Source: Minisyncoccia bacterium (lineage in GTDB: Bacteria; Patescibacteriota; Minisyncoccia; 2-02-FULL-40-12; IGHO2-01-FULL-4-A). Taken from it: 64,000 nucleotides of DNA. Positions within the stretch are counted from its first letter, which is position 1. Each line of letters opens with the position of its first letter. The notes under the pieces were generated by a model that saw only the letters and a program-made list of their open reading frames with translations, had not been told where the DNA came from and did no database searches. The DNA lies in assembly GCA_050015375.1 (NCBI GenBank), contig JBEKBN010000005.1:1858-65857 (forward strand). The letters run 5' to 3'. The position numbers and the translations under genes are program-made. This document shows, piece after piece, positions 11,435 through 22,441 of this stretch.

Positions 11435-11845
11435 ATGAAAACGGAGATTTCGCCAAAACAAGTCATATTGGCAGCCGTGGCAGTGATCATTATTGGGGTT
11501 GGTTTTAGTTTGATAAAGACCAGTTTTAACAAGGGCCAGGTTCAGAACCAGCAAGCCGCCCTCGTCCTTTATTTCGACCAGACCCAAAAACGGATATTTG
11601 AAGGCGATGTTACTGACAACATGTCGGTTTTGCAGGCGCTCTACGCTTCTTCTTTGGCCGGAAATTTTGATTTCCGCTATTCCGTCGAAAAGTCCGGCAA
11701 GATCCAGCTTTACAAGATCGGCGACAAGATCAATGATCTTGGCGGCCAATGGTATTTTTACCTCAACGGCAATCCCATAAATATCGGAGACATTGACCTG
11801 CAAAAAATAAACAAAGGCGACTTAATTGAGGCAAAATATCAATAA
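11435..11845 (+). CDS. Hypothetical membrane-anchored protein
   Basis: The ORF track starts at 11420 inside the MITE. The ATG at 11435 is the duplicated target ATGAA. One TM helix. Confidence 0.5.
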   Translation: MKTEISPKQVILAAVAVIIIGVGFSLIKTSFNKGQVQNQQAALVLYFDQTQKRIFEGDVTDNMSVLQALYASSLAGNFDFRYSVEKSGKIQLYKIGDKINDLGGQWYFYLNGNPINIGDIDLQKINKGDLIEAKYQ

Positions 11846-11860
11846 TAATTCGGGGCTTGC

Positions 11861-11938
11861 CCTGTTAGAGAGTGCAAAATTATTCGGGCGTTTTTTTTGT
11901 TCACAATTTTTCAATTATCAAAAGGACTCTCTAACAGG
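11861..11938. mobile_element. MITE-like element, GAGAG subfamily, 78 bp, TSD GCTTGC
   Basis: cctgttagagagtgc / ggactctctaacagg flanked by gcttgc on both sides. Confidence 0.7.
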
Positions 11939-11951
11939 GCTTGCCCCTCAC

Positions 11952-12563
11952 TTGAAAGCGATTTTAAAAAAAACGCCGCTTTTCGGCTGGTCGTTTTCAA
12001 GCGAGGGGTTCTCATTAGTTGAAATACTCGTTGTCACGACTATTATAGTCATCCTCTCGACGTTGATGGTTTTTAATTTCCGGTCATCGTCCACCAATAC
12101 CACCAGCCGCCATCAGGTGGCTTCGGTCATTGTCGCCGACATCAGAGAACTCCAGGCCCGGGCTTTAGCCGGAATTTCAGCGACCGGGACGATCGTTTGC
12201 GGCTACGGCATTCATTTTGTCAATTCCCAGAGCTATCTGACCTTTACGCGCCAACCGGATCCGGTGTTATGTTCAAAAACCGACGACCGGAAATTTGGCG
12301 CCGGCAACGACCAGGTTCTGGATACCAAGATCGTCGGTAATCCGAATTTTGCCATCCAAACGACCTCCGGTTGGGACAACAGCGACATTTATTTCGAACC
12401 GCCCGACCCGACGACATACATAAACAACGAGAAAACCGTCGCCGGCAATATTGAGCCCTCCGAGACCATATTGATAGTTCGCTCCAACGATCCAAGCGAT
12501 CTGTCTTCGAGCACCATAACCGTTTATGCGTCTGGAAAAATAGACATAACCGATTCGCAATGA
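11952..12563 (+). CDS. Minor pilin / pseudopilin
   Basis: ...SSEG | FSLVEILVVTTIIVIL prepilin N-terminus. The ORF track extends to 11826 through the MITE; TTG 11952 is proposed as the start (uncertain). Confidence 0.6.
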   Translation: MKAILKKTPLFGWSFSSEGFSLVEILVVTTIIVILSTLMVFNFRSSSTNTTSRHQVASVIVADIRELQARALAGISATGTIVCGYGIHFVNSQSYLTFTRQPDPVLCSKTDDRKFGAGNDQVLDTKIVGNPNFAIQTTSGWDNSDIYFEPPDPTTYINNEKTVAGNIEPSETILIVRSNDPSDLSSSTITVYASGKIDITDSQ

Positions 12564-13165
12564 CCCAGATGGAAAGATCAAAAGAAAAGGGGTTCACCCC
12601 GTTAGAGAGTGCAAAATCATTAGGACAATATTTTAGCGTGCGGTTTCGCAATTTCAAAAAGGACTCTCTAACGGGGTTCACCATGGTTGAGATCATCGTC
12701 ACCATTTTTATTTTGGGTTTGGCCCTGGCCGCTATTTATGGAATTTTGTCCGTTGACATGGCCAGCGCCACCGCCTCAAAAAACAATTACACCGCCAGCA
12801 TGCTGGCTCAGGAAGGAGTGGAATTGGTGAGAAATTTCAGGGATAGCGATTGGCTTGCCGGACGGGAATTTGGTTCGCTGGGAGGTTTAGGCGGACCAGT
12901 AGGCGATGGTACCTTTGCCGTTGAGTGGGATGGAACCACGCTTTTGCCGGCGGAGTTTGCCGATGAATATCTGGAGAAAGATTCGAACGGCGTCTTCTCA
13001 TATGATGGTGGCGGTGACACTCTTTTCAAAAGGGCGATTACTATTGATGAAACCACAGATCCGGGAGTTGAGATTATTGTAAGAGTTGATGTCACCTGGA
13101 CCGAAAGGGGACTGGATAAAAAATTATCCGCCGAAGATCATTTATTCAACTGGTACCAAAAATGA
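12560..13165 (+). CDS. Minor pilin with a MITE-encoded 28-aa insertion in the leader peptide
   Basis: MTQMERSKEKGFT[PLESAKSLGQYFSVRFRNFKKDSLTGFT]MVEIIV. The GFT...E cleavage site is regenerated after the insert. Confidence 0.7.
   Translation: MTQMERSKEKGFTPLESAKSLGQYFSVRFRNFKKDSLTGFTMVEIIVTIFILGLALAAIYGILSVDMASATASKNNYTASMLAQEGVELVRNFRDSDWLAGREFGSLGGLGGPVGDGTFAVEWDGTTLLPAEFADEYLEKDSNGVFSYDGGGDTLFKRAITIDETTDPGVEIIVRVDVTWTERGLDKKLSAEDHLFNWYQK
12598..12675. mobile_element. MITE-like element, GAGAG subfamily, 78 bp, TSD GTTCAC, in-frame in CDS
   Basis: cccgttagagagtgc...cactctctaacggg with 6-bp TSD; insert plus TSD is 84 nt (28 codons). Confidence 0.8.
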
Positions 13166-13788
13166 AAAAACCATTTCAAAAGGGCTTTACCCCGTTAGAG
13201 AGTGCAAGCTCAATCAAGAAATTTTTTAACGGACGATTTTGTAATTTTAAAAAGGACTCTCTAACGGGGTTTACATTGATCGAGGCCATAGTTTCCACAC
13301 TTATTTTCTCGATAATCTTGACTATCATCGGCGGCGCTTTCAGTTTGTTCCTGAACTCCCAAAGAAGAGCCATGAACATCCAGCAGGCGATCGAGAACTC
13401 CAACTTTATCTTCGAGTCCATGGCCAAAGAGATCAGGATGAGCACAATCCTCGATGTCGGCAACGACAATTGCCCGGGAACGTATTCGACGACTTTGAAC
13501 ATCGAGCATCCGATCAACGGCTTGGTTACTTACCAATGGGATAACGGCAATCTTTACCGGACCGTGAAAAATCAGACAACCAACGCAACGACCACGACGA
13601 TGCTGAATTCCGATTCGGTTCAATTGACCGGCTTCAAATTTTGCAAAATGGGCGTTGAAGTCGGCGACCAGATCCAGCAGAGGGTAACTATAATTTCGTC
13701 CGTTTCAACCAAGAACTCCAGTGACCAGCAAGCGGTCGTTGATGTTCAAACCACGATTTCCACGAGAAATCTGGAAACAAATCCATGA
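13162..13788 (+). CDS. Minor pilin with a MITE-encoded leader insertion
   Basis: MKKPFQKGFT[PLESASSIKKFFNGRFCNFKKDSLTGFT]LIEAIV. Confidence 0.7.
   Translation: MKKPFQKGFTPLESASSIKKFFNGRFCNFKKDSLTGFTLIEAIVSTLIFSIILTIIGGAFSLFLNSQRRAMNIQQAIENSNFIFESMAKEIRMSTILDVGNDNCPGTYSTTLNIEHPINGLVTYQWDNGNLYRTVKNQTTNATTTTMLNSDSVQLTGFKFCKMGVEVGDQIQQRVTIISSVSTKNSSDQQAVVDVQTTISTRNLETNP
13191..13268. mobile_element. MITE-like element, GAGAG subfamily, 78 bp, TSD (c/g)TTTAC, in-frame in CDS
   Basis: Same termini as 12598..12675; identical 78-bp length. Confidence 0.8.
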
Positions 13789-14132
13789 GCATAAATAACC
13801 CATCCAAAAAAAGATCGGACTCCGGCGTCGCCCTTTTGTTCACGATATTAATGATCGGCATTTTGCTCTCGATCATTTTGGTTTTGTCGAATATTTTTGC
13901 CATCAAGCTCAAACTGTCGGCTGAAACGAGGTACTCGGTCAGCGCCTATTACGCCGCCGAGAGCGGTGTTGAATACTGCCTGTACCTGAGAACATCGCCG
14001 ACTCCGGTTCCGGACCCGCCGGTTCTGGATAACGGCGCGACCTTTGATACCGGCGATACTTGCGCTTCCGGCAACATTAGATCGGTAGGTTCTTTCCGGA
14101 ATGTTTCCCGAGCCATCGAGATCTCATACTAG
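13785..14132 (+). CDS. PilX-N-like pilus-associated protein
   Basis: SDSGVALLFTILMIGILLSIILVL, the PilX N-terminal hydrophobic pattern. Four genes are linked by ATGA overlaps. Confidence 0.45.
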   Translation: MSINNPSKKRSDSGVALLFTILMIGILLSIILVLSNIFAIKLKLSAETRYSVSAYYAAESGVEYCLYLRTSPTPVPDPPVLDNGATFDTGDTCASGNIRSVGSFRNVSRAIEISY

Positions 14133-14972: not shown

Positions 14973-15302
14973 TTGTTTTTGTGCTATAATAGAAATAGAA
15001 ATATGAAAATACCCGATTTCCTAAAAAAATACTTTTGGGATGTTGATTTTAACGGTCTCGATGCCAACACACATTCGCTTTTTATCGTTGAAAGAATATT
15101 AGAATACGGAGACGAAACCGCAACGAGTTGGATGCTGGATAATTTCAGCAAAGAGCAAATAAAGCAAACATTGCTGGAAAGAAAGGGTTTTTCGAAAAAA
15201 AGCGCTAACTATTGGTCTTTGATTTTAAATATACCTAAAGATAAAATTTCATGTTTGAACAGGTCTTACCAGCAGATGCAAAAAAGTCATTGGCCATATT
15301 AG
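14973..15302 (+). CDS. Hypothetical protein, upstream partner of the AbiEii-like gene
   Basis: 109 aa, low GC. Overlaps the next ORF by 52 nt in another frame. Confidence 0.4.
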   Translation: MFLCYNRNRNMKIPDFLKKYFWDVDFNGLDANTHSLFIVERILEYGDETATSWMLDNFSKEQIKQTLLERKGFSKKSANYWSLILNIPKDKISCLNRSYQQMQKSHWPY

Positions 15303-15874
15303 GCAAGAGCGGATTACTGAATGGCGCTTATCTGGCCGGCGGCACAGCTCTAGCCCTACAAATAGGACACAGGATTTCTGTTGATTTTGATTTTTTCACT
15401 CCGGAAGAATTTGACGAAAATATTCTAGTTCAACGGATGCAAAAAACAATTCCTGATTTTAAATTGGATAGGATGGAATGGGGAACCATTTTGGGATATA
15501 TTGGAGAAACCCGTTTCAGTTTGTTTTTTTACAATTATCCTCTTCTTTTCAAAACTCACGATTTCATGGGAGTTAAAATCGCAGACATAAAAGATATCGC
15601 CCCCATGAAAATAGCGGCCATATCGGACAGGGGGACGAAAAGAGATTTTATTGACTTATTTTTTTTAATAGAAGAGGAGAAAACATTGACGCTGGAAGAA
15701 GCGCTTGAGTTATATGATAAAAAATTCGGGTTACTTAAACAAAATAGAATTCATATACTGAAAAGCTTGGTCTATTTTGACGATGCCGAAAAAGGGGGAG
15801 AGCCCAAAATGATAAAAGACATATCTTGGGATAAAATAAAAAAAAGAATCGCAGAATTGGCGTTGGCTCAATAA
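15251..15874 (+). CDS. Nucleotidyltransferase, AbiEii/AbiGii toxin-like family
   Basis: AYLAGGTALALQIGHRISVDFDFFT, the characteristic GG(T/S)AL...D.DF NTase motif of this family. Confidence 0.65.
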   Translation: MFEQVLPADAKKSLAILGKSGLLNGAYLAGGTALALQIGHRISVDFDFFTPEEFDENILVQRMQKTIPDFKLDRMEWGTILGYIGETRFSLFFYNYPLLFKTHDFMGVKIADIKDIAPMKIAAISDRGTKRDFIDLFFLIEEEKTLTLEEALELYDKKFGLLKQNRIHILKSLVYFDDAEKGGEPKMIKDISWDKIKKRIAELALAQ

Positions 15875-15875
15875 T

Positions 15876-15923
15876 CAACGACAACTCCATCAAAAAAACC
15901 GTCATCGAAATCGATTTCGTCCC
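15876..15923. repeat. 48-bp direct repeat, right copy
   Basis: See 14763..14810. Confidence 0.85.
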
Positions 15924-15944
15924 CGGAAAATAATAAGTTGCTCT

Positions 15945-16003
15945 TCCGAGCCTTGTAGTTGACACTAAACTGTATATAGTTGTAAAATCCAGAAAGTACT
16001 TCC
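15945..16003 (+). promoter_or_regulatory. Promoter of the RiPP precursor gene
   Basis: TTGACA ... tgTAAAAT extended -10-like, then SD ggaggtg 7 nt before the ATG at 16018. Confidence 0.45.
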
Positions 16004-16017
16004 ATGGAGGTGTTTTT

Positions 16018-16194
16018 ATGTCTTTTATGTCTGGTTTTCTGACCTTGGACATTAGAGAGCCAGAGCAGGGCACACTTTCCGGCATCGAAATGCAACCGAC
16101 TTGTGATTGCGATGATATCGCCTGCGATACCAATTGCGATTGCCAAGATTGCGATTACAACTGTGAGGAATGCGACTGCGACAAAAGCGACTGA
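16018..16194 (+). CDS. Candidate RiPP precursor peptide A (58 aa), Cys/Asp-rich core
   Basis: Not in the ORF track because it is under 60 aa. MSFMSGFLTLDIREPEQGTLSGIEMQ-PTCDCDDIACDTNCDCQDCDYNCEECDCDKSD. Good SD, own promoter and terminator. Confidence 0.55.
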   Translation: MSFMSGFLTLDIREPEQGTLSGIEMQPTCDCDDIACDTNCDCQDCDYNCEECDCDKSD

Positions 16195-16224
16195 CAGTTT
16201 GCCCCGTTTGTAGCCAATGTCCCC

Positions 16225-16257
16225 GAGACGCCACTTCTTGGCGCCTCTTCTTTTTTA
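16225..16257. terminator. Bidirectional terminator after precursor A, convergent with the HExxH gene
   Basis: gagacgcc-acttctt-ggcgcctc followed by ttcttttttatt. Confidence 0.6.
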
Positions 16258-17124
16258 TTCAATGACGATGGGTTGTCTAAATTTTTTTAGAAGCTCCTGA
16301 TCTCTTAATGTTTTGTAGCCAAATTTATGCCACATCTCGATTTTTTTGCTTATTTGGTCGCCGATAGAAGCAAATAGTTTTATTAATTTATTAATAATCT
16401 GATTCATATCATTGTTATTATTTTTGTTAAAAATAATATTTTTGTCTACAAAATCAACCAGGGTCATATTATTATCTCCCTCCGATATGTGTATCTCTAC
16501 AATCTCTGGATTGCCTCGGGGAGATTTAGGCATATTAAAAAGGCTTAATAACTCTGGATTTTTAAACATACTTGAGGTGATTGATTCCTGTAAAACATAA
16601 ACCACATCCTTTGAAACATTTTGCCCAATTTTCCAGCCCATTTTCTCGATATATTCTAAAAAAATAATATGAGAAATTTCATGAATTGCAGTCGAAAGAA
16701 CCGACTTGTTTTCTGGATTTTTATTATTTAATTCTGCCAATACAGAATAAAAAAAATAATCTTTCTTGAATGGTGAAAACGGCAGGAGAGACAGATACGC
16801 GTTATATGCTATAGGATCAGACCATGAATAGTTCATAAATCCGCTCAAGAATTTAAAAGCCGCATTATTTTTTTTATTAATTATTTCTTGATTGTACTTG
16901 ATTATCTCTTCTAATTGATTACCCTTGCTTTGATGAAGTGAAACAACAAAATCACGCACTTTTTTTTCCGCATCAGAACTGTTTATTATGTCCGTAAGTT
17001 CCGGGTATGTTTTAAGGATCTTCTCTCGATTTTGAATAAAATATTTATGCCAAATAAAAGAAACGAAGGCGTCAGCATCTTTAATTGGGTCGTTAATAAT
17101 TTTGATTGTTGGGGATACGCCCAT
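16255..17124 (-). CDS. HExxH-motif protein, putative zinc metallopeptidase
   Basis: 289 aa, very low GC. TAIHEISHIIF. Homologous to 20241..20888 (T.IHEI.H.........W). Confidence 0.55.
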   Translation of the reverse strand: MGVSPTIKIINDPIKDADAFVSFIWHKYFIQNREKILKTYPELTDIINSSDAEKKVRDFVVSLHQSKGNQLEEIIKYNQEIINKKNNAAFKFLSGFMNYSWSDPIAYNAYLSLLPFSPFKKDYFFYSVLAELNNKNPENKSVLSTAIHEISHIIFLEYIEKMGWKIGQNVSKDVVYVLQESITSSMFKNPELLSLFNMPKSPRGNPEIVEIHISEGDNNMTLVDFVDKNIIFNKNNNNDMNQIINKLIKLFASIGDQISKKIEMWHKFGYKTLRDQELLKKFRQPIVIE

Positions 17125-17222
17125 TTCTTTAATATTTACAAATCTTTATTATAATTGTATAGTAAATTATAGCATAGCAACTGCACTTTAACAACGAAAT
17201 CCTAGCCAGAAAGAGGTTTTGT

Positions 17223-18563
17223 ATGTACAGGACTTTAAGCGCTCCGCTCATCACACAGGTTGAGTTGACTGAAAAATGTCCCAATAAATGTAGACATTGC
17301 TACAATTATTGGCGGACATTTAATACTGGCAAGTTCAATAATTTTCCAGCCAAAATGGTTGACCAGACGCTGGATAAATTAGCAGAAGCAAAAATATTTC
17401 ACTTAGTCATAACCGGTGGCGAACCACTTGCCAATAAACCAGTTCTTTTTAGTTTCCTCAAAGGCGTGGAAGCCCGAAAATTGACTTGCGGCATCAATTC
17501 GACATTATCAGGACTCACAAAATCAGATGCCGAATATTTTCAGGAAAGTGGCGTTATGAATGTCCTGATTTCGATATTGGGGTCAGACGAGAAAAAACAT
17601 GACGCTATTACCCAAAGCAGGGGTTCTTTTTCCCGCACAATTGATGGGATAAAAATATTGAAAAACACAAACATCCCCATTAGCGCAAATATGGTTGTCT
17701 CCGCCTTGAATATTGACGACATAATCCCGACTTCGATACTTGTTAAATCGCTCGGTTTTAAGAAATTCTTCATTACTAGGGCGGCTTGTCCCAGTAACTG
17801 TATTGATTTCAACGAGCTACGCTTAACAAGAGAACAGTTTACAGGTTACTTAAAAGAACTCCACGCTATTCAAGAACGGATGGGTTTGCGTACGGGTTTT
17901 TTGGAGTGCTACCCGCTTTGTGGCATGAAAGAATTACTACGATACAGTTCTTTTCTGGGTCGCAAATGTTTGGCCGGAATAACTAGCATGACCATAGGTC
18001 CGACCGGAGAAGCCAGACCCTGTTCCCATTTGGATAAGGTTTATGGAAATATATTCAAGGAAAATATCCGTGAAGTTTGGTCCAGAATGACGGAATGGCG
18101 TCATCAATCGTTGCTACCAGACATATGCAAGTCATGCAGAATCGTTAACTATTGTGGTGGCGGGTGCAGGATGGAAGCAAAAACGCTCGGGGGAGGTATA
18201 AATGAAATCGATCCCTTTGCTGAACCGGCAAATGTCGAATATGCGACAGAACAACTTGCCATTTTACACAGAAGAAAACTTGCGAAAAAAGATGAGCTAC
18301 CAAAATTCTGCAGGATAAACCCAAGCTTACGGGTGCGGAATGAATCCTTTGGAGGAGTGTTTTTTGTGGGGGATAAGTCATCTGGTTTAGTGGAATCTCC
18401 AGTGATGGATTTCGTTGGTAGGCTAGATAAAAGGCAAATTTATGAAGTTGATTTTTTGACCGCAGAGATAAATCGTTCTTTATCTTCCGTAAACATCACC
18501 AAGTTTCTCAACCGTATGTTCAAGGAAAAGATTTTCGTTGCTATTTCCGGGGATCATGTTTGA
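17223..18563 (+). CDS. Radical SAM / SPASM-domain peptide-modifying enzyme
   Basis: CPNKCRHCYN (CxxxCxxC) plus C-terminal SPASM cysteines CKSCRIVNYCGGGCR. Confidence 0.85.
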   Translation: MYRTLSAPLITQVELTEKCPNKCRHCYNYWRTFNTGKFNNFPAKMVDQTLDKLAEAKIFHLVITGGEPLANKPVLFSFLKGVEARKLTCGINSTLSGLTKSDAEYFQESGVMNVLISILGSDEKKHDAITQSRGSFSRTIDGIKILKNTNIPISANMVVSALNIDDIIPTSILVKSLGFKKFFITRAACPSNCIDFNELRLTREQFTGYLKELHAIQERMGLRTGFLECYPLCGMKELLRYSSFLGRKCLAGITSMTIGPTGEARPCSHLDKVYGNIFKENIREVWSRMTEWRHQSLLPDICKSCRIVNYCGGGCRMEAKTLGGGINEIDPFAEPANVEYATEQLAILHRRKLAKKDELPKFCRINPSLRVRNESFGGVFFVGDKSSGLVESPVMDFVGRLDKRQIYEVDFLTAEINRSLSSVNITKFLNRMFKEKIFVAISGDHV

Positions 18564-18745: not shown

Positions 18746-19636
18746 ATGAAAGGCCTAAGATTATTTTTGATGATTTTGGCGGGGCTGGCGCTTATTACCC
18801 TGTTTCCGCAGGCCGTTTTCGGCCAGAAAGACGGGGATACCCGGCAGATCTATGTGTATCTTCCTACTCAAGTTGTAGGATTAGATGGACCGGCCGGGAA
18901 TCCAAATACTTACGAATATTTAACAGTTATGACATTTACCGTGCGACCCGGTGTTCCTGGTAGTTTTTATGCCTGGCATTTCGATTCGTCCGGGAAGAAA
19001 ATGCAACTGAGGATTTCAGGCGTCAACGGTAGCAGTTTTGAGGCTACTGAGTCGGGGGGCAGTATTGTACCCGGGGGGAGTATTACTCTGACATATTCCT
19101 ATTGCCAAGATAATCAATTTGGCGGATGCCCAAATACTAACATACGTAGCGGCTGGACGCGTTTTCAGGTGGGACAAACTTTTTCAGTGGCGTCTGGGTG
19201 GCAATACGACACCCTGATTTCCGTTGTCTTTCAGCGACGAGACAATCTCGGGTTTCCAAAAATCGTTGCTGATGCTCCCGTTGTTGAGCTTGACACTTCT
19301 TTTATCATTCCGGCATCAGTGACAACCGGCGGAATTGATTCGGGTATTGCCATAGTTAATCCTTCTGACCAACTAGCCAACTTGTCATTCCAGATTTTTA
19401 ATGATGTTGGCCAACTGAAAGGGTCAAAGCAACTGACACTTAATGCCGCCTATCAGTTGAGTGAGTTTGTATCCCAGCTTTTTCCAAATTTACCATTGGA
19501 TGGACTGGGCAATATGCTGACATCCGGCCAGTTAAGGATTTCTTCTGACACACCAATTGCCGTTCTTTCGCTGAAGTCCTACACCGCTCCCGGTTTTTTC
19601 AATATGGGCGGCGGAGCGGCTTTCGTTGTCAAATAA
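18746..19636 (+). CDS. Secreted hypothetical protein
   Basis: Signal peptide MKGLRLFLMILAGLALITLFPQAVFGQ. Confidence 0.5.
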   Translation: MKGLRLFLMILAGLALITLFPQAVFGQKDGDTRQIYVYLPTQVVGLDGPAGNPNTYEYLTVMTFTVRPGVPGSFYAWHFDSSGKKMQLRISGVNGSSFEATESGGSIVPGGSITLTYSYCQDNQFGGCPNTNIRSGWTRFQVGQTFSVASGWQYDTLISVVFQRRDNLGFPKIVADAPVVELDTSFIIPASVTTGGIDSGIAIVNPSDQLANLSFQIFNDVGQLKGSKQLTLNAAYQLSEFVSQLFPNLPLDGLGNMLTSGQLRISSDTPIAVLSLKSYTAPGFFNMGGGAAFVVK

Positions 19637-19763: not shown

Positions 19764-20111
19764 TTGTTTTTTGACAACCAAAGACAAAAGAAAAGAGGAA
19801 AAATGACTAAGAAATTCCAGCGAACAATAGAAGAATTTACCCGTGGAAAGTGTGTTTTTACTGTGCTTGGAAACGGCTACACTAATCACTGCCCGCAATG
19901 CCTATGGAGTAAGCATGTTGATATAAATCCTAGCGACCGCCAGGCAATATGCCAAGGGTTTATGGAACCCGTGGGCATTGAGCTCAAGAGTGGGGAATAT
20001 ACTATCCTCCATCGCTGTGTTTCGTGCGGTTTTGAGAAACGGAATAAGACGTCAAAAGATGATAATTTTGATGTAATTCTCCGACTCTCGAGTCGTCCAA
20101 CCAAACATTAA
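19764..20111 (+). CDS. RNHCP-domain zinc-ribbon protein
   Basis: NHCPQC...CVSCG. Likely start is ATG 19802 (MTKKFQ). Confidence 0.5.
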   Translation: MFFDNQRQKKRGKMTKKFQRTIEEFTRGKCVFTVLGNGYTNHCPQCLWSKHVDINPSDRQAICQGFMEPVGIELKSGEYTILHRCVSCGFEKRNKTSKDDNFDVILRLSSRPTKH

Positions 20112-20240: not shown

Positions 20241-20888
20241 CTAAGATTTGGAGGTTTTTTTGAGTATTTCCTCTAGATTTGGAAAGTTTGAGTTGAAGAT
20301 CTCGTCAATTTTTTCGATATTAAACCCTTGGGGAAGTTTCTGCATTTTACTTATTTCCGGCATGATTTTCGAGAATATTAGGTCAACAATCCTTTCTTTT
20401 TCCCAGTGACCAATATGATATTTAACTATTAAAGATTCGATATTTAGGTGTAAAATTTCGTGAATAATGGTTCTGCAAATTTCGTTTGGTTGTCTATTAT
20501 TGACATTGATAATTATTGTGCTGGGAGGATCGTAACTCCCGCCGACTCCATATTTTGTAAGAATAATTTTATATAATCCAAATCCTGTCGTTAGACCGTT
20601 TTTTTCTATATTGTTTTCAAGAATATCTGAGATCTTGCCCCATTCTGCATAAATCGAATTAGTCAATTTTTGGTATTCGTTTCGATCAAATTCGTCTTCC
20701 AATTTGTCAGTGATGGTGTCCAAATTAACATCTTCATAACCATCCATGACTATCTCAGAAATTCTGGCAGGTAGACTAATGTTATACCCTCTCTCTCGAT
20801 ACCATTTTAACTTTTTTAATGTATCTAAAACTCTCTCCACTTCAAACTTGAGAGAGAATTTGATTTTGATTTCAATCTGTTTGTTCAT
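20241..20888 (-). CDS. HExxH-motif protein, paralog of 16255..17124
   Basis: TIIHEILHLNIESLIVKYHIGHW; low GC. Confidence 0.55.
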   Translation of the reverse strand: MNKQIEIKIKFSLKFEVERVLDTLKKLKWYRERGYNISLPARISEIVMDGYEDVNLDTITDKLEDEFDRNEYQKLTNSIYAEWGKISDILENNIEKNGLTTGFGLYKIILTKYGVGGSYDPPSTIIINVNNRQPNEICRTIIHEILHLNIESLIVKYHIGHWEKERIVDLIFSKIMPEISKMQKLPQGFNIEKIDEIFNSNFPNLEEILKKTSKS

Positions 20889-20930
20889 AAAAAATTAGGG
20901 GTTAGCATAAGCTATGCTTATACTAACCCC
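20888..20930 (-). terminator. Hairpin terminator/attenuator between precursor B and the HExxH gene
   Basis: ggggttagcataagc / gcttatactaacccc stem with a T-run on the minus strand. Confidence 0.6.
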
Positions 20931-20960
20931 TTTTGGAGAGAACAGCGCAACCGCGTCTGG

Positions 20961-21146
20961 TTAAACGCATTGCCCGGTAGTGCAGTCGCCAGTCACGACA
21001 TCACAACAGTTAATGCCGAACCGGTTTTGCAGGACAGAAGACGGCTGGGTGCTATCTTTCGAATCTTTCTTCAGATGATCCCCGGCCAAATTTACGAAGA
21101 GCAACTTCAATTCCTGCATACCACGATTACCCCTGTTTTTGACCAT
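20961..21146 (-). CDS. Candidate RiPP precursor peptide B (61 aa), Cys-rich C-terminus
   Basis: MVKNRGNRGMQELKLLFVNLAGDHLKKDSKDSTQPSSVLQNRF-GINCCDVVTGDCTTGQCV. SD ggaaggag. Starts 2 nt after the rSAM stop. Confidence 0.5.
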   Translation of the reverse strand: MVKNRGNRGMQELKLLFVNLAGDHLKKDSKDSTQPSSVLQNRFGINCCDVVTGDCTTGQCV

Positions 21147-21148
21147 AA

Positions 21149-22198
21149 CTAAGGATCTCCTTCCTTATTCGAGATCATACCAGAAAAGTCAAAACTATTC
21201 CACCACAGTGGACAACCTCCACGACACCACCACCTATAATCACAATTTGTGCACTTTCGATGACGAAAAACATCAATCGTTCTTCTAAGACGGCTCATTT
21301 CAGAGCCACTCCAAAAATCAATGAATGATTGTGAGCTGGAAATCACAGAATCAATTTCGGATGGACAAACAAGCTCAAATCCCGTCGTGTGAGTGCACAA
21401 AGAAATCGCACGGTTCTCCTTAATTGTTACCGCGTTGCCCGTAAAAACCGGGCAGTTAAACATCAATGACTTTTCCGCCATTATTTCTCTCAATGTCATT
21501 TCCTCTATAAGGCACCACGGTAAGCTAATGACGAAACAGCATTTCTGCTCCAATTTTTTACAAAGTCGAAAAATGTCTGGGATCGCATCAGCAATCAAGA
21601 CCGGATCGGTTTTATATTGCCTGGTATCATCCAAGGAAGGAAGACCGAAAGTGAAGCAAAGCGATTTTGCTTCGAACTTTTTTGCCAAAGCGATGCAATC
21701 TCCAACATTGCCCAGATTTTCCGGACATAGAACGACATTGACCGAAAAACCAATATTTCGATCACGCAGATTTTTCAATCCCTGGCACATTTCATCAAAT
21801 CCTTCCGATGCGCCCGTGTTTGCAAAATAGTGCTCCCGATTGGTTCCGTGCATAGAAACAGAAATACTGAGATGAGGGATGTTTTTTATTACTGACAAGG
21901 GAATGCCATTTGAAAACGATCTCCCGTTGGTAATTAAATTACAGAACTGAAAAAAACTACACAAGTCATCTGCAATTGAAGAAAATTCTGGATGAAGAGT
22001 CGGTTCGCCGCCCGTAATTACGCAGGATTTCGTCCCGCATTCGGACAAGGTTTTTGCAACCCTGACAATAAAATCGCGATTCAAAAAAGTTGCTATTTCC
22101 GACCCCTTACGCAAACACCACAAACAATCGTTGTCGCAAATCCCAGTTAGTGACAACCATACTCGATTTGGTACGACGTTTTGCAACTTTTCAGCCAT
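21149..22198 (-). CDS. Radical SAM / SPASM-domain peptide-modifying enzyme
   Basis: CDNDCLWC (CxxxCxxC) plus SPASM CTNCDYRWWCRGGCP. The ORF track extends to 22285, but ATG 22198 has SD ggagg and is preferred. Confidence 0.85.
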   Translation of the reverse strand: MAEKLQNVVPNRVWLSLTGICDNDCLWCLRKGSEIATFLNRDFIVRVAKTLSECGTKSCVITGGEPTLHPEFSSIADDLCSFFQFCNLITNGRSFSNGIPLSVIKNIPHLSISVSMHGTNREHYFANTGASEGFDEMCQGLKNLRDRNIGFSVNVVLCPENLGNVGDCIALAKKFEAKSLCFTFGLPSLDDTRQYKTDPVLIADAIPDIFRLCKKLEQKCCFVISLPWCLIEEMTLREIMAEKSLMFNCPVFTGNAVTIKENRAISLCTHTTGFELVCPSEIDSVISSSQSFIDFWSGSEMSRLRRTIDVFRHRKCTNCDYRWWCRGGCPLWWNSFDFSGMISNKEGDP

Positions 22199-22441
22199 AA
22201 ATACCTCCGAATAATAGCAAAAATGTTTTTTATTGTGTTGTAAACGAACAATTATAAAGATACTAGAATATTGCATTTTTGTCAAAATATATTAGAATAT
22301 TTAGAATAATAAAAAACATTACCACTTCAACTGCCACTATGGGTTTCCGAAGTTTTTCCATGTATAATTAAGGCAATAAACATCTTCACCGCCTCGGGGA
22401 ATAATTTAGAGAAGCCCTGGTTATTTTCAAAAAGTTGATAA

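Follow-up and report, generated by a model that had tools for sequence, protein, structure and literature searches.

We analysed a stretch of 64,000 nucleotides (nt) from the genome of a member of Minisyncoccia, a class of Minisyncoccota, i.e., the candidate phyla radiation (CPR)/Patescibacteria; the whole stretch is hereafter referred to as the window. Our work focused on a 58-amino acid (aa) open reading frame (ORF) at 16018..16194 of its + strand, whose product displays a short leader followed by a core extremely rich in Cys and Asp. Our results indicate that this peptide, a radical S-adenosylmethionine (rSAM) enzyme bearing a SPASM domain, and a protein with an HExxH motif probably constitute a three-gene cassette for a ribosomally synthesized, post-translationally modified peptide (RiPP), in which the peptide would be the substrate of the rSAM/SPASM maturase. 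Taken by itself, the assignment of the peptide as a RiPP precursor is very probable. Three traits were found conserved in the family, namely a leader motif of the form GFxT/S-L/I, a core composed of Cys, Asp, Asn and Glu, and the association of peptide, rSAM/SPASM and HExxH genes. Further, two elements by which rSAM/SPASM RiPP cassettes are generally recognized were present: a leader-core ORF adjoins the maturase gene in a conserved linkage, and the enzyme carries the CxxxCxxC motif along with the cysteines of the SPASM auxiliary clusters. As far as sequence comparison indicates, the cassette is lineage-wide, with its own precursor family, a C-terminal domain resembling the RiPP recognition element (RRE) and an obligatory HExxH partner, and would represent a peptide-modification system widespread in CPR.

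The features of the peptide gene are as follows:

16018..16194, + strand: precursor peptide gene, 58 aa plus stop, ATG start; translation MSFMSGFLTLDIREPEQGTLSGIEMQPTCDCDDIACDTNCDCQDCDYNCEECDCDKSD
16014..16031, + strand: perfect 9-bp tandem duplication of TTTTATGTC (two copies) spanning the start codon, with in-frame ATGs at 16018 and 16027
16033..16053, + strand: putative leader recognition motif, G6-F-L-T-L-D-I12, a near variant of the family leader consensus
16102..16191, + strand: core region, residues C29-D58, with 9 Cys, 10 Asp, 2 Glu and 1 Lys
16135-16176, + strand: conserved minimal core, residues C40-D53, CDCQDCDYNCEECD, defined by conservation in 14 peptides

Evidence for a protein-coding gene

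Cys, Asp and Glu constitute 70% of the last 30 residues of the peptide (composition count), and among the four stretches with at least 6 Cys per 30 aa that occur in the six frames of the window, only 16018..16194 is Cys/Asp-patterned. When the peptide was queried against 5.8 billion proteins in a word-indexed search, nothing beyond the peptide itself was retrieved, and an exhaustive HMMER search of 1.84 billion representatives retrieved one relative, P0122, with 52 aa and 74% identity. For a peptide this short and compositionally biased, sequence search alone was too weak, and it was synteny with the rSAM gene that revealed the family. P0122 is found on six contigs, and wherever these are long enough the gene order is that of the window (peptide, opposite-strand 292-aa gene, 446-aa rSAM gene); the outer flanks of the cassette are unlike those of the window in the two longest contigs, which reach that far.

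Comparison of the window with the related locus L083 showed coding-frame differences distributed 7/7/20 over the first, second and third codon positions, the distribution that a protein-coding sequence should give; 11 codon changes are synonymous and 15 are non-synonymous. From these sequence data, the ORF is a real protein-coding gene under coding constraint, which supports the sequence-only reading that had proposed, before any database search, a small gene encoding a leader and a Cys/Asp-repeat core: the 74%-identity homolog, the third-position bias and the conserved expression signals described below all agree with it. That reading also held that its proposal would fall if homologs with a conserved Cys/Asp pattern were lacking, and dozens were recovered beside rSAM/SPASM genes by HMMER and the synteny-guided search; likewise, the conservation of Cys spacing that it asked to be checked is seen as invariant Cys positions in the alignment of the closest clade. 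The CPR origin implied by its suggested tblastn search is correct as well (Minisyncoccia).

The opposite view, that the ORF is spurious and that the locus really encodes an antisense gene or a non-coding RNA, draws on the long antisense open frames that overlap with it in the window (15735..16133, 15868..16146 and 16052..16234). These frames reach 128 and 139 codons in the window; they do not exceed 69 in L083, and four other relatives have them shorter or broken up. Such variable lengths across five relatives, together with the 7/7/20 distribution in the sense frame, a peptide motif kept at 35-74% identity and an Rfam scan of 15700..17300 yielding noise matches only, make this explanation exceedingly improbable, and the comparative sequence data already contradict it. 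The antisense frames are by-products of a stop-poor sequence rich in TGC and GAC, in agreement with their earlier dismissal as artefacts.

Described at first as unannotated, the ORF was indeed missing from the 60-aa ORF track available to the sequence-only reading; the description does not hold overall, since gene calls of NCBI, JGI, ENA and Logan include it. The identical peptide is deposited in NCBI as hypothetical protein ABR875_02055 [Minisyncoccia bacterium], the exact peptide is contained in the JGI, ENA and Logan calls, and two Logan contigs bear the same locus. Regarding the start codon, the 9-bp duplication lengthens the N-terminus by Met-Ser-Phe relative to the closest homolog and there are thus two possible starts; the alternative in-frame ATG at 16027 gives a 55-aa form, and P0122 begins at the counterpart of this second ATG (MSGFLTLDI). 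Scans of the window peptide and nine relatives against Pfam and NCBIfam, with E up to 10, gave no credible match, the sole NCBIfam match listed being noise (soxL2, E 2.8, 6.9 bits against a cut-off of 582). The early impression that the peptide is unlike described families thus stands within the libraries scanned, in which neither SCIFF nor any other curated peptide model was matched.

A precursor family linked to the radical SAM gene

Relatives of the rSAM enzyme number in the hundreds at 30-52% identity and derive mostly from Patescibacteria. A pattern scan of GTDB species genomes identified at least 232 stretches encoding such relatives, and our locus analyses cover 80 of them. Of the 77 loci where the end of the rSAM gene was present on the contig, approximately 50 have a small ORF (36-75 aa, 4 or more Cys) that starts -28 to +111 nt from the rSAM stop codon; among nearer relatives, these small ORFs are mostly Cys/Asp-rich. 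A filter on composition gave a concordant picture: from 2594 ATG-initiated ORFs of 30-90 aa in the 80 loci, 35 combined 4 or more Cys with 3 or more C[D/E] dipeptides, every one of them on the rSAM strand, so that the Cys/Asp pattern exceeds chance. The linkage between a small Cys-rich ORF and the rSAM gene spans Patescibacteria, two DPANN-type archaeal bins and a few other phyla.

Thirteen peptides align with that of the window on the pattern C-D-C-[YFHQV]-D-C-[DN]-[YFVI]-N-C-[EQ]-E-C-[DE]. In these 14 peptides, D41, C42, D44, C45, N48, C49, E51 and C52 are invariant, and C40, E50 and D53 nearly so; acidic and amide residues of the core are therefore as invariant as Cys in the closest clade. 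Across 37 family peptides, with some 260 Cys in total, the residue following Cys is Asp in 128 cases and Glu in 29. The window core contains five C-x3-D pairs (C29-D33, C40-D44, C42-D46, C49-D53 and C54-D58), and those conserved in the clade as C-x3-[D/N/E] are C40-D44, C42-D/N46 and C49-D/E53. The number of Cys ranges from 4 to 12 among relatives, and core length also varies widely. Further, a strict leader consensus, G-[FIY]-x-[ST]-[LIF]-[LIV]-[DE], was found in an N-proximal position in 31 of 41 family leaders.

Other precursor types were observed along with these. One subfamily (L028 7330..7458 and L030 7330..7461) has a core ending in ...LACYCHCACACHV and another (L056, L061, L069 and L077) in ...SCQCVNCQSCNNSCNR, both devoid of acidic residues, so that modification cannot depend on Asp/Glu throughout the superfamily; a third (L040, L068, L073, L074, L078 and L081) carries the core ...GDCxCFNCDGNPCVK. 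All three are found behind more distant rSAM relatives. In the archaeal bins L044 and L047 (Nanoarchaeota), as well as in L024 and L046, the same rSAM gene accompanies a Cys/Asp-rich peptide with a long and distinct leader (MxKKLEDIPKEE...). At L029 (8071..8310) and L032 (8071..8355), ORFs of 79-94 aa lie approximately 750 nt past the rSAM stop codon, with another ORF in between, and end in proline/cysteine repeats (PPPPC[VI][GD][RK]PPPPC...CYGG) unlike the Cys/Asp cores. The most extreme member seen is a 62-aa ORF from a WWE3 genome (L043 10729..10917), located approximately 3.4 kb from the rSAM gene, with 13 Cys and 14 C-D/E or D/E-C dipeptides (...CDCETDCASQCSQQCDRDCDCECGGDCYDCDCECQCQCSDCRN).

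The radical SAM/SPASM enzyme

The proposed maturase is encoded 3' of the peptide gene, with the following features:

17223..18563, + strand: 446-aa radical SAM/SPASM enzyme (Pfam Radical_SAM, Fer4_12 and SPASM)
17277-17300, + strand: CxxxCxxC motif, residues 19-26
17967-18203, + strand: SPASM domain, residues 249-327
18306-18542, + strand: C-terminal RRE-like domain, residues 362-440 (predicted topology)

The enzyme scored 67.4 bits with the Pfam Radical_SAM model and 30.9 bits with SPASM, and reached 46.8 bits with TIGR04085 (cut-off 27). In 31 homologs, C19/C23/C26, C193, C233, C249, C267, C302, C305, C311 and C315 are invariant. An NCBIfam scan of the maturase revealed no equivalog reaching its cut-off, and the best scores corresponded to AhbD (103 bits against 500), NirJ2 and PqqE. 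Membership among PqqE or mycofactocin (MftC) maturases was discarded (94 bits against 381 and 69 against 265, respectively), as was that among SCIFF maturases, whose model lay outside the best 25 of the 72 families matched, none of those listed being near its own cut-off. The best sequence match in the PDB was SkfB, with only 89.7 bits over residues 8-287, and CteB matched weakly (35 bits); by fold, the best Foldseek matches were SuiB, anSME, SkfB, PqqE and ChlB. The closest solved relatives, by sequence and by fold, are thus peptide-modifying SPASM enzymes.

In the AlphaFold2 model (predicted local distance difference test score of 91.3), the SPASM domain is followed by a helix, four strands (362-391) and three helices (392-434). 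This four-strand/three-helix arrangement corresponds to the RRE topology, and we refer to the domain as RRE-like on the basis of the model.

The HExxH partner

16255..17124, - strand: 289-aa HExxH protein with a predicted zincin-like fold, the proposed leader peptidase; HEISH at residues 148-152 (16669-16683)

The HEISH motif is invariant among homologs of the 289-aa protein and lies on a helix of its predicted zincin-like fold. No match was obtained for this protein in Pfam, NCBIfam or PDB sequences, and no NCBIfam model was matched by any member of its family. A word-indexed search recovered 4 homologs only; by tblastn, homologs were located beside the rSAM and peptide genes in 16 of the closest loci, plus L083. 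Clustering of 771 neighbouring ORFs (90 aa or longer) taken from 82 loci placed four mutually unrelated HExxH families, present in 32, 18, 11 and 6 loci, among the top five recurrent clusters after rSAM; the motif was read in the representative examined of each family. The largest of them (32 loci, with a 232-aa partner) reaches the cut-off of Pfam Peptidase_MA_2 (44.3 against 32.4). Four loci, the archaeal bins L044 and L047 as well as L024 and L046, have a transglutaminase-like protein (cysteine-protease fold) nearby and no HExxH partner. Several unrelated folds of protease type take the same place, which suggests a role as leader peptidase. The same clustering revealed no conserved exporter, immunity gene or other tailoring enzyme, with no other cluster in more than 5 loci and no recurrent transporter.

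Expression signals

15959..15988, + strand: promoter-like site for the peptide gene, -35 TTGACA (15959-15964), 18-nt spacer, -10 TAAAAT (15983-15988), 11/12 consensus positions
16006..16012, + strand: Shine-Dalgarno sequence GGAGGTG, 5 nt before the ATG at 16018
16225..16256, + strand: intrinsic-terminator-like hairpin (16225-16247) and U-tract UUCUUUUUU (16248-16256), between the convergent peptide and HExxH genes
17166..17194, - strand: promoter-like site for the HExxH gene, TTGTTA, 17-nt spacer, TATAAT, with TG extension, 10/12 positions (consensus match only)
17135..17163, + strand: promoter-like site for the rSAM gene, TTTACA, 17-nt spacer, TATAGT, 10/12 positions (consensus match only)

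A consensus scan ranked the TTGACA-18-TAAAAT site as the best promoter-like site in 15500..17500, and its TTGAC and TGTAAAAT blocks are kept in the 74%-identity relatives L083 and L084. L083 bears GGGGGGTG at the position equivalent to the Shine-Dalgarno sequence, and preserves the terminator hairpin with a compensating change (CCA/UGG to CCG/CGG). These signals had largely been anticipated from the sequence: the ggaggtg was read where it had been claimed; TTGACA and a -10 hexamer are present, but the supposed -10 extension is not, as the scan shows no TG before the hexamer; and the terminator described as bidirectional has a hairpin that folds on both strands (-15.7 kcal/mol on the - strand) but a U-tract on the + strand only, the - strand having CGGGGACA in place of a U-run.

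Proposed mechanism and alternative explanations

We propose that the peptide would be transcribed from its own strong promoter, with transcription ending at its own terminator, and that the leader motif would dock, in beta-strand form, onto the RRE-like domain at the C-terminus of the maturase. The 5'-deoxyadenosyl radical of the SPASM enzyme would then abstract hydrogens from the core, and Cys sulfurs would be joined to carbons as thioether rings, for which the likeliest acceptors would be the co-conserved Asp, Asn and Glu, at their beta or gamma carbons. The C-x3-[D/N/E] pairs would fit such rings, with C40-D44, C42-D46 and C49-D53 as conserved candidates and C29-D33 and C54-D58 as additional ones in the window. 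The HExxH protein would subsequently remove the leader, and the product would be a compact and very acidic peptide carrying multiple bridges, its core having a net charge of around -11. As no exporter or immunity gene is conserved, the product could act inside the cell, bind metal or work at the interface with the host.

The step to Cys-to-Asp/Asn/Glu thioethers specifically is drawn by analogy and is the weaker part of the proposal, with chances that we place slightly short of even. PapB installs Cys-Asp/Glu thioethers, and for Cys-Xn-Asp it tolerates n = 0-6 (PMC9413430; PMC10739248). Several observations weigh against the proposal. The best NCBIfam scores of the maturase (AhbD, NirJ2 and PqqE) make its sequence not specifically indicative of thioether formation; assignment as a PapB-type enzyme was rejected (NF047865, 66.6 bits against a cut-off of 340), and so was assignment as a sactisynthase (AlbA, 55.8 bits against 850; StsB, 55.3 against 625). 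Neither Pfam nor PDB sequences yielded a match in profile searches with the C-terminal domain, so its RRE-like character is read from predicted structure. The window peptide and P0122 carry the near-variant GFLTLDI, off the strict leader consensus, and C-x3-[D/E] counts across the wider family range from 0 to 5 per peptide. Moreover, distant rSAM relatives are paired with acid-free cores (...ACYCHCACACH in L028 and L030, ...CQCVNCQSCNNSCNR in L056, L061 and L069), indicating that Asp is not the universal acceptor.

An alternative explanation is that the cassette and substrate are as proposed and the rSAM chemistry is another one, such as sactionine thioethers at alpha carbons, C-C cross-links, epimerisation or conversion of Cys, the product being possibly a metal chelator or cofactor-like molecule and not a beta/gamma-thioether ranthipeptide. 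The nearest relatives of the maturase are chemically varied (AhbD, NirJ2, PqqE, SkfB, SuiB and anSME), the Cys-rich cores of distant members have no Asp or Glu, no exporter is conserved, and a peptide, a SPASM enzyme, an RRE and a metalloprotease are also the parts of the pyrroloquinoline quinone (PQQ) pathway (PqqA, PqqE, PqqD and PqqF). We nevertheless consider this explanation unlikely: the closest clade preserves three C-x3-[D/N/E] pairs and keeps its Asp, Asn and Glu as strictly as its Cys; the varying core length and Cys number (4-12) differ from the fixed precursor of a small cofactor; and thioether formation is the established fate of Cys-rich substrates of SPASM enzymes. A different role may also be envisaged for the HExxH protein, as an Fe(II)/alpha-ketoglutarate (alpha-KG)-dependent oxygenase hydroxylating core Asp, in the manner of ChlH beside the rSAM enzyme ChlB, given that some HExxH proteins in RiPP clusters are beta-hydroxylases of Asp, His, Gln or Asn and not peptidases (PMC12636437); the replacement of the partner by unrelated folds is a better argument for a leader-peptidase role than for a hydroxylase, and we regard the oxygenase as improbable. 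Least credible among the three, and very unlikely, is that the peptide acts unmodified as a small metal- or Fe-S-binding protein of metallothionein type, with the nearby rSAM enzyme serving in cluster supply or regulation. The 70% of core residues that are good metal ligands (Cys, Asp or Glu) and the lack of an exporter in the cassette would suit such a protein, but the conserved N-terminal leader motif stands apart from the Cys-rich part, the peptide gene directly follows the rSAM stop codon in approximately 50 loci, a protease-like partner is always present, and neither metallothionein nor any other family was matched in Pfam.

Neighbouring genes and a second cassette

A second, similar cassette was observed on the - strand at 20241..22285 of the window, approximately 3 kb beyond the first:

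21149..22285, - strand: rSAM/SPASM gene, 378 aa (domain scan)
20961..21146, - strand: 61-aa Cys-containing ORF directly downstream of the rSAM gene, ending ...GINCCDVVTGDCTTGQCV
20241..20888, - strand: 215-aa HEILH protein (motif)

Homologs of the 215-aa protein lie near a second rSAM gene and other Cys/Asp-rich peptides (e.g., ...GDCDCIGGNCDGGWGACECNCDCADE) in L009, L013, L014, L023, L030 and L054, indicating that the two cassettes often travel together. Between the two cassettes of the window there are an RNHCP-domain protein (19764..20111) and a 296-aa protein (18746..19636) that matches nothing in Pfam and has a signal-like hydrophobic segment at its N-terminus; both the latter, presumed secreted, and the former were discarded as parts of the cassette, having no homologs in the 80 related loci.

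Directly upstream of the peptide promoter, the gene of a DUF6922 protein (14973..15302) overlaps that of an AbiEii-type nucleotidyltransferase toxin (15251..15874), a pair that looks like a type IV toxin-antitoxin system by sequence; AbiEii homologs also occur near the rSAM gene in L034 and L053. Farther upstream, window positions 11826..14132 contain four or five ORFs with N-termini such as GFSLVEILVV, GFTMVEIIV and GFTLIEAIV, which look like prepilin signals of type IV pilins or pseudopilins.

Novelty and significance

A literature search returned no description of the family; most subscription journals lay outside its coverage, so an earlier account is possible. Neither Pfam nor NCBIfam contains the precursor family or the 289-aa HExxH family, and only generic rSAM/SPASM models cover the maturase; consequently, standard annotation leaves all three genes as hypothetical or generic. 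A broader claim would be that the cassette is the founding example of a large RiPP family retained by genome-reduced episymbionts (CPR and at least two DPANN-type bins), often as paired cassettes, and with an undescribed cross-link pattern, which we regard as rather doubtful. If true, the cross-links could be, for example, thioethers between adjacent Cys and Asp, or a lattice of overlapping rings of one to four residues, and the product a hyper-acidic caged peptide acting without an exporter, such as a metal or Fe-S chelator or a host-attachment factor.

With genomes of ~1 Mb, CPR bacteria are very limited in biosynthetic capacity. One survey of metagenome-assembled genomes (MAGs) reported zero biosynthetic clusters in Patescibacteria MAGs (PMC11613949). 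The persistence of the cassette in such a reduced lineage suggests that its product matters for the episymbiotic lifestyle. A system widespread in organisms thought to be almost devoid of specialised metabolism is of interest in this regard, albeit not shocking for a RiPP specialist. Furthermore, the system is compact (three genes and a 58-aa substrate) and could reveal new radical chemistry, thioether-forming or of another kind, on dense Cys/Asp motifs, with an interest for peptide stapling such as PapB already has.

Comparison with known systems

The system resembles those of ranthipeptides and sactipeptides, yet falls outside SCIFF, PapB, AlbA/StsB, PqqE and MftC membership. With PapA/PapB of freyrasin, a ranthipeptide of Paenibacillus polymyxa, it shares a Cys/Asp-rich core and an rSAM/SPASM enzyme; however, the window core is more tightly packed (C-D dipeptides, Cys spacings of 1-4), the cassette includes a dedicated HExxH partner, the hosts are CPR bacteria instead of Firmicutes, and the leader-binding domain is predicted to be C-terminal in the window maturase, whereas the RRE of PapB is N-terminal. 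The PapB thioethers between Cys and Asp/Glu are formed in six C-x3-D/E motifs of its substrate (PMC9413430). The short Cys-rich precursor beside a SPASM rSAM gene, the usual lack of exporter and immunity genes, and the lineage-wide distribution recall the SCIFF (six Cys in forty-five) peptides (CteA/CteB, thermocellin), a comparison already drawn in the sequence-only reading, although the window core is Asp-rich and does not carry the SCIFF motif; a SCIFF assignment was discarded for the window peptide and nine relatives, none of which gave a SCIFF NCBIfam match.

A second chemical precedent is provided by QhpC/QhpD, in which a SPASM rSAM enzyme makes intrapeptide Cys-to-Asp and Cys-to-Glu thioethers; QhpC is an enzyme subunit (quinohemoprotein amine dehydrogenase gamma) and not the leader-core peptide of a stand-alone cassette, no quinohemoprotein genes are found here, and the QhpD model lies outside the top NCBIfam matches of the maturase. 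The PQQ (PqqA/D/E/F) and mycofactocin (MftA/B/C/E) pathways likewise combine a small peptide, a SPASM rSAM enzyme, an RRE and a peptidase, and PqqE ranks among the best relatives of the window maturase in both sequence and fold; in our cassette, the RRE-like domain is predicted as a C-terminal fusion, and the core is long, variable and Cys-rich, in contrast to a fixed Glu/Tyr or Val-Tyr pair. Finally, ChlA/ChlB-ChlH also brings an rSAM/SPASM enzyme and a zincin-fold HExxH protein to a single RiPP precursor, both being among our fold matches, and Asp is a known target of the ChlH-type HExxH enzyme (PMC12636437). There, the rSAM enzyme is fused to the alpha-KG HExxH beta-hydroxylase, whereas here the two are separate genes on opposite strands; the 289-aa protein, with no sequence match to a curated family, resembles ChlH in fold less than it resembles true peptidases; and the substrate is characterized by a cyclophane motif in ChlA and by its richness in Cys in the cassette described here.

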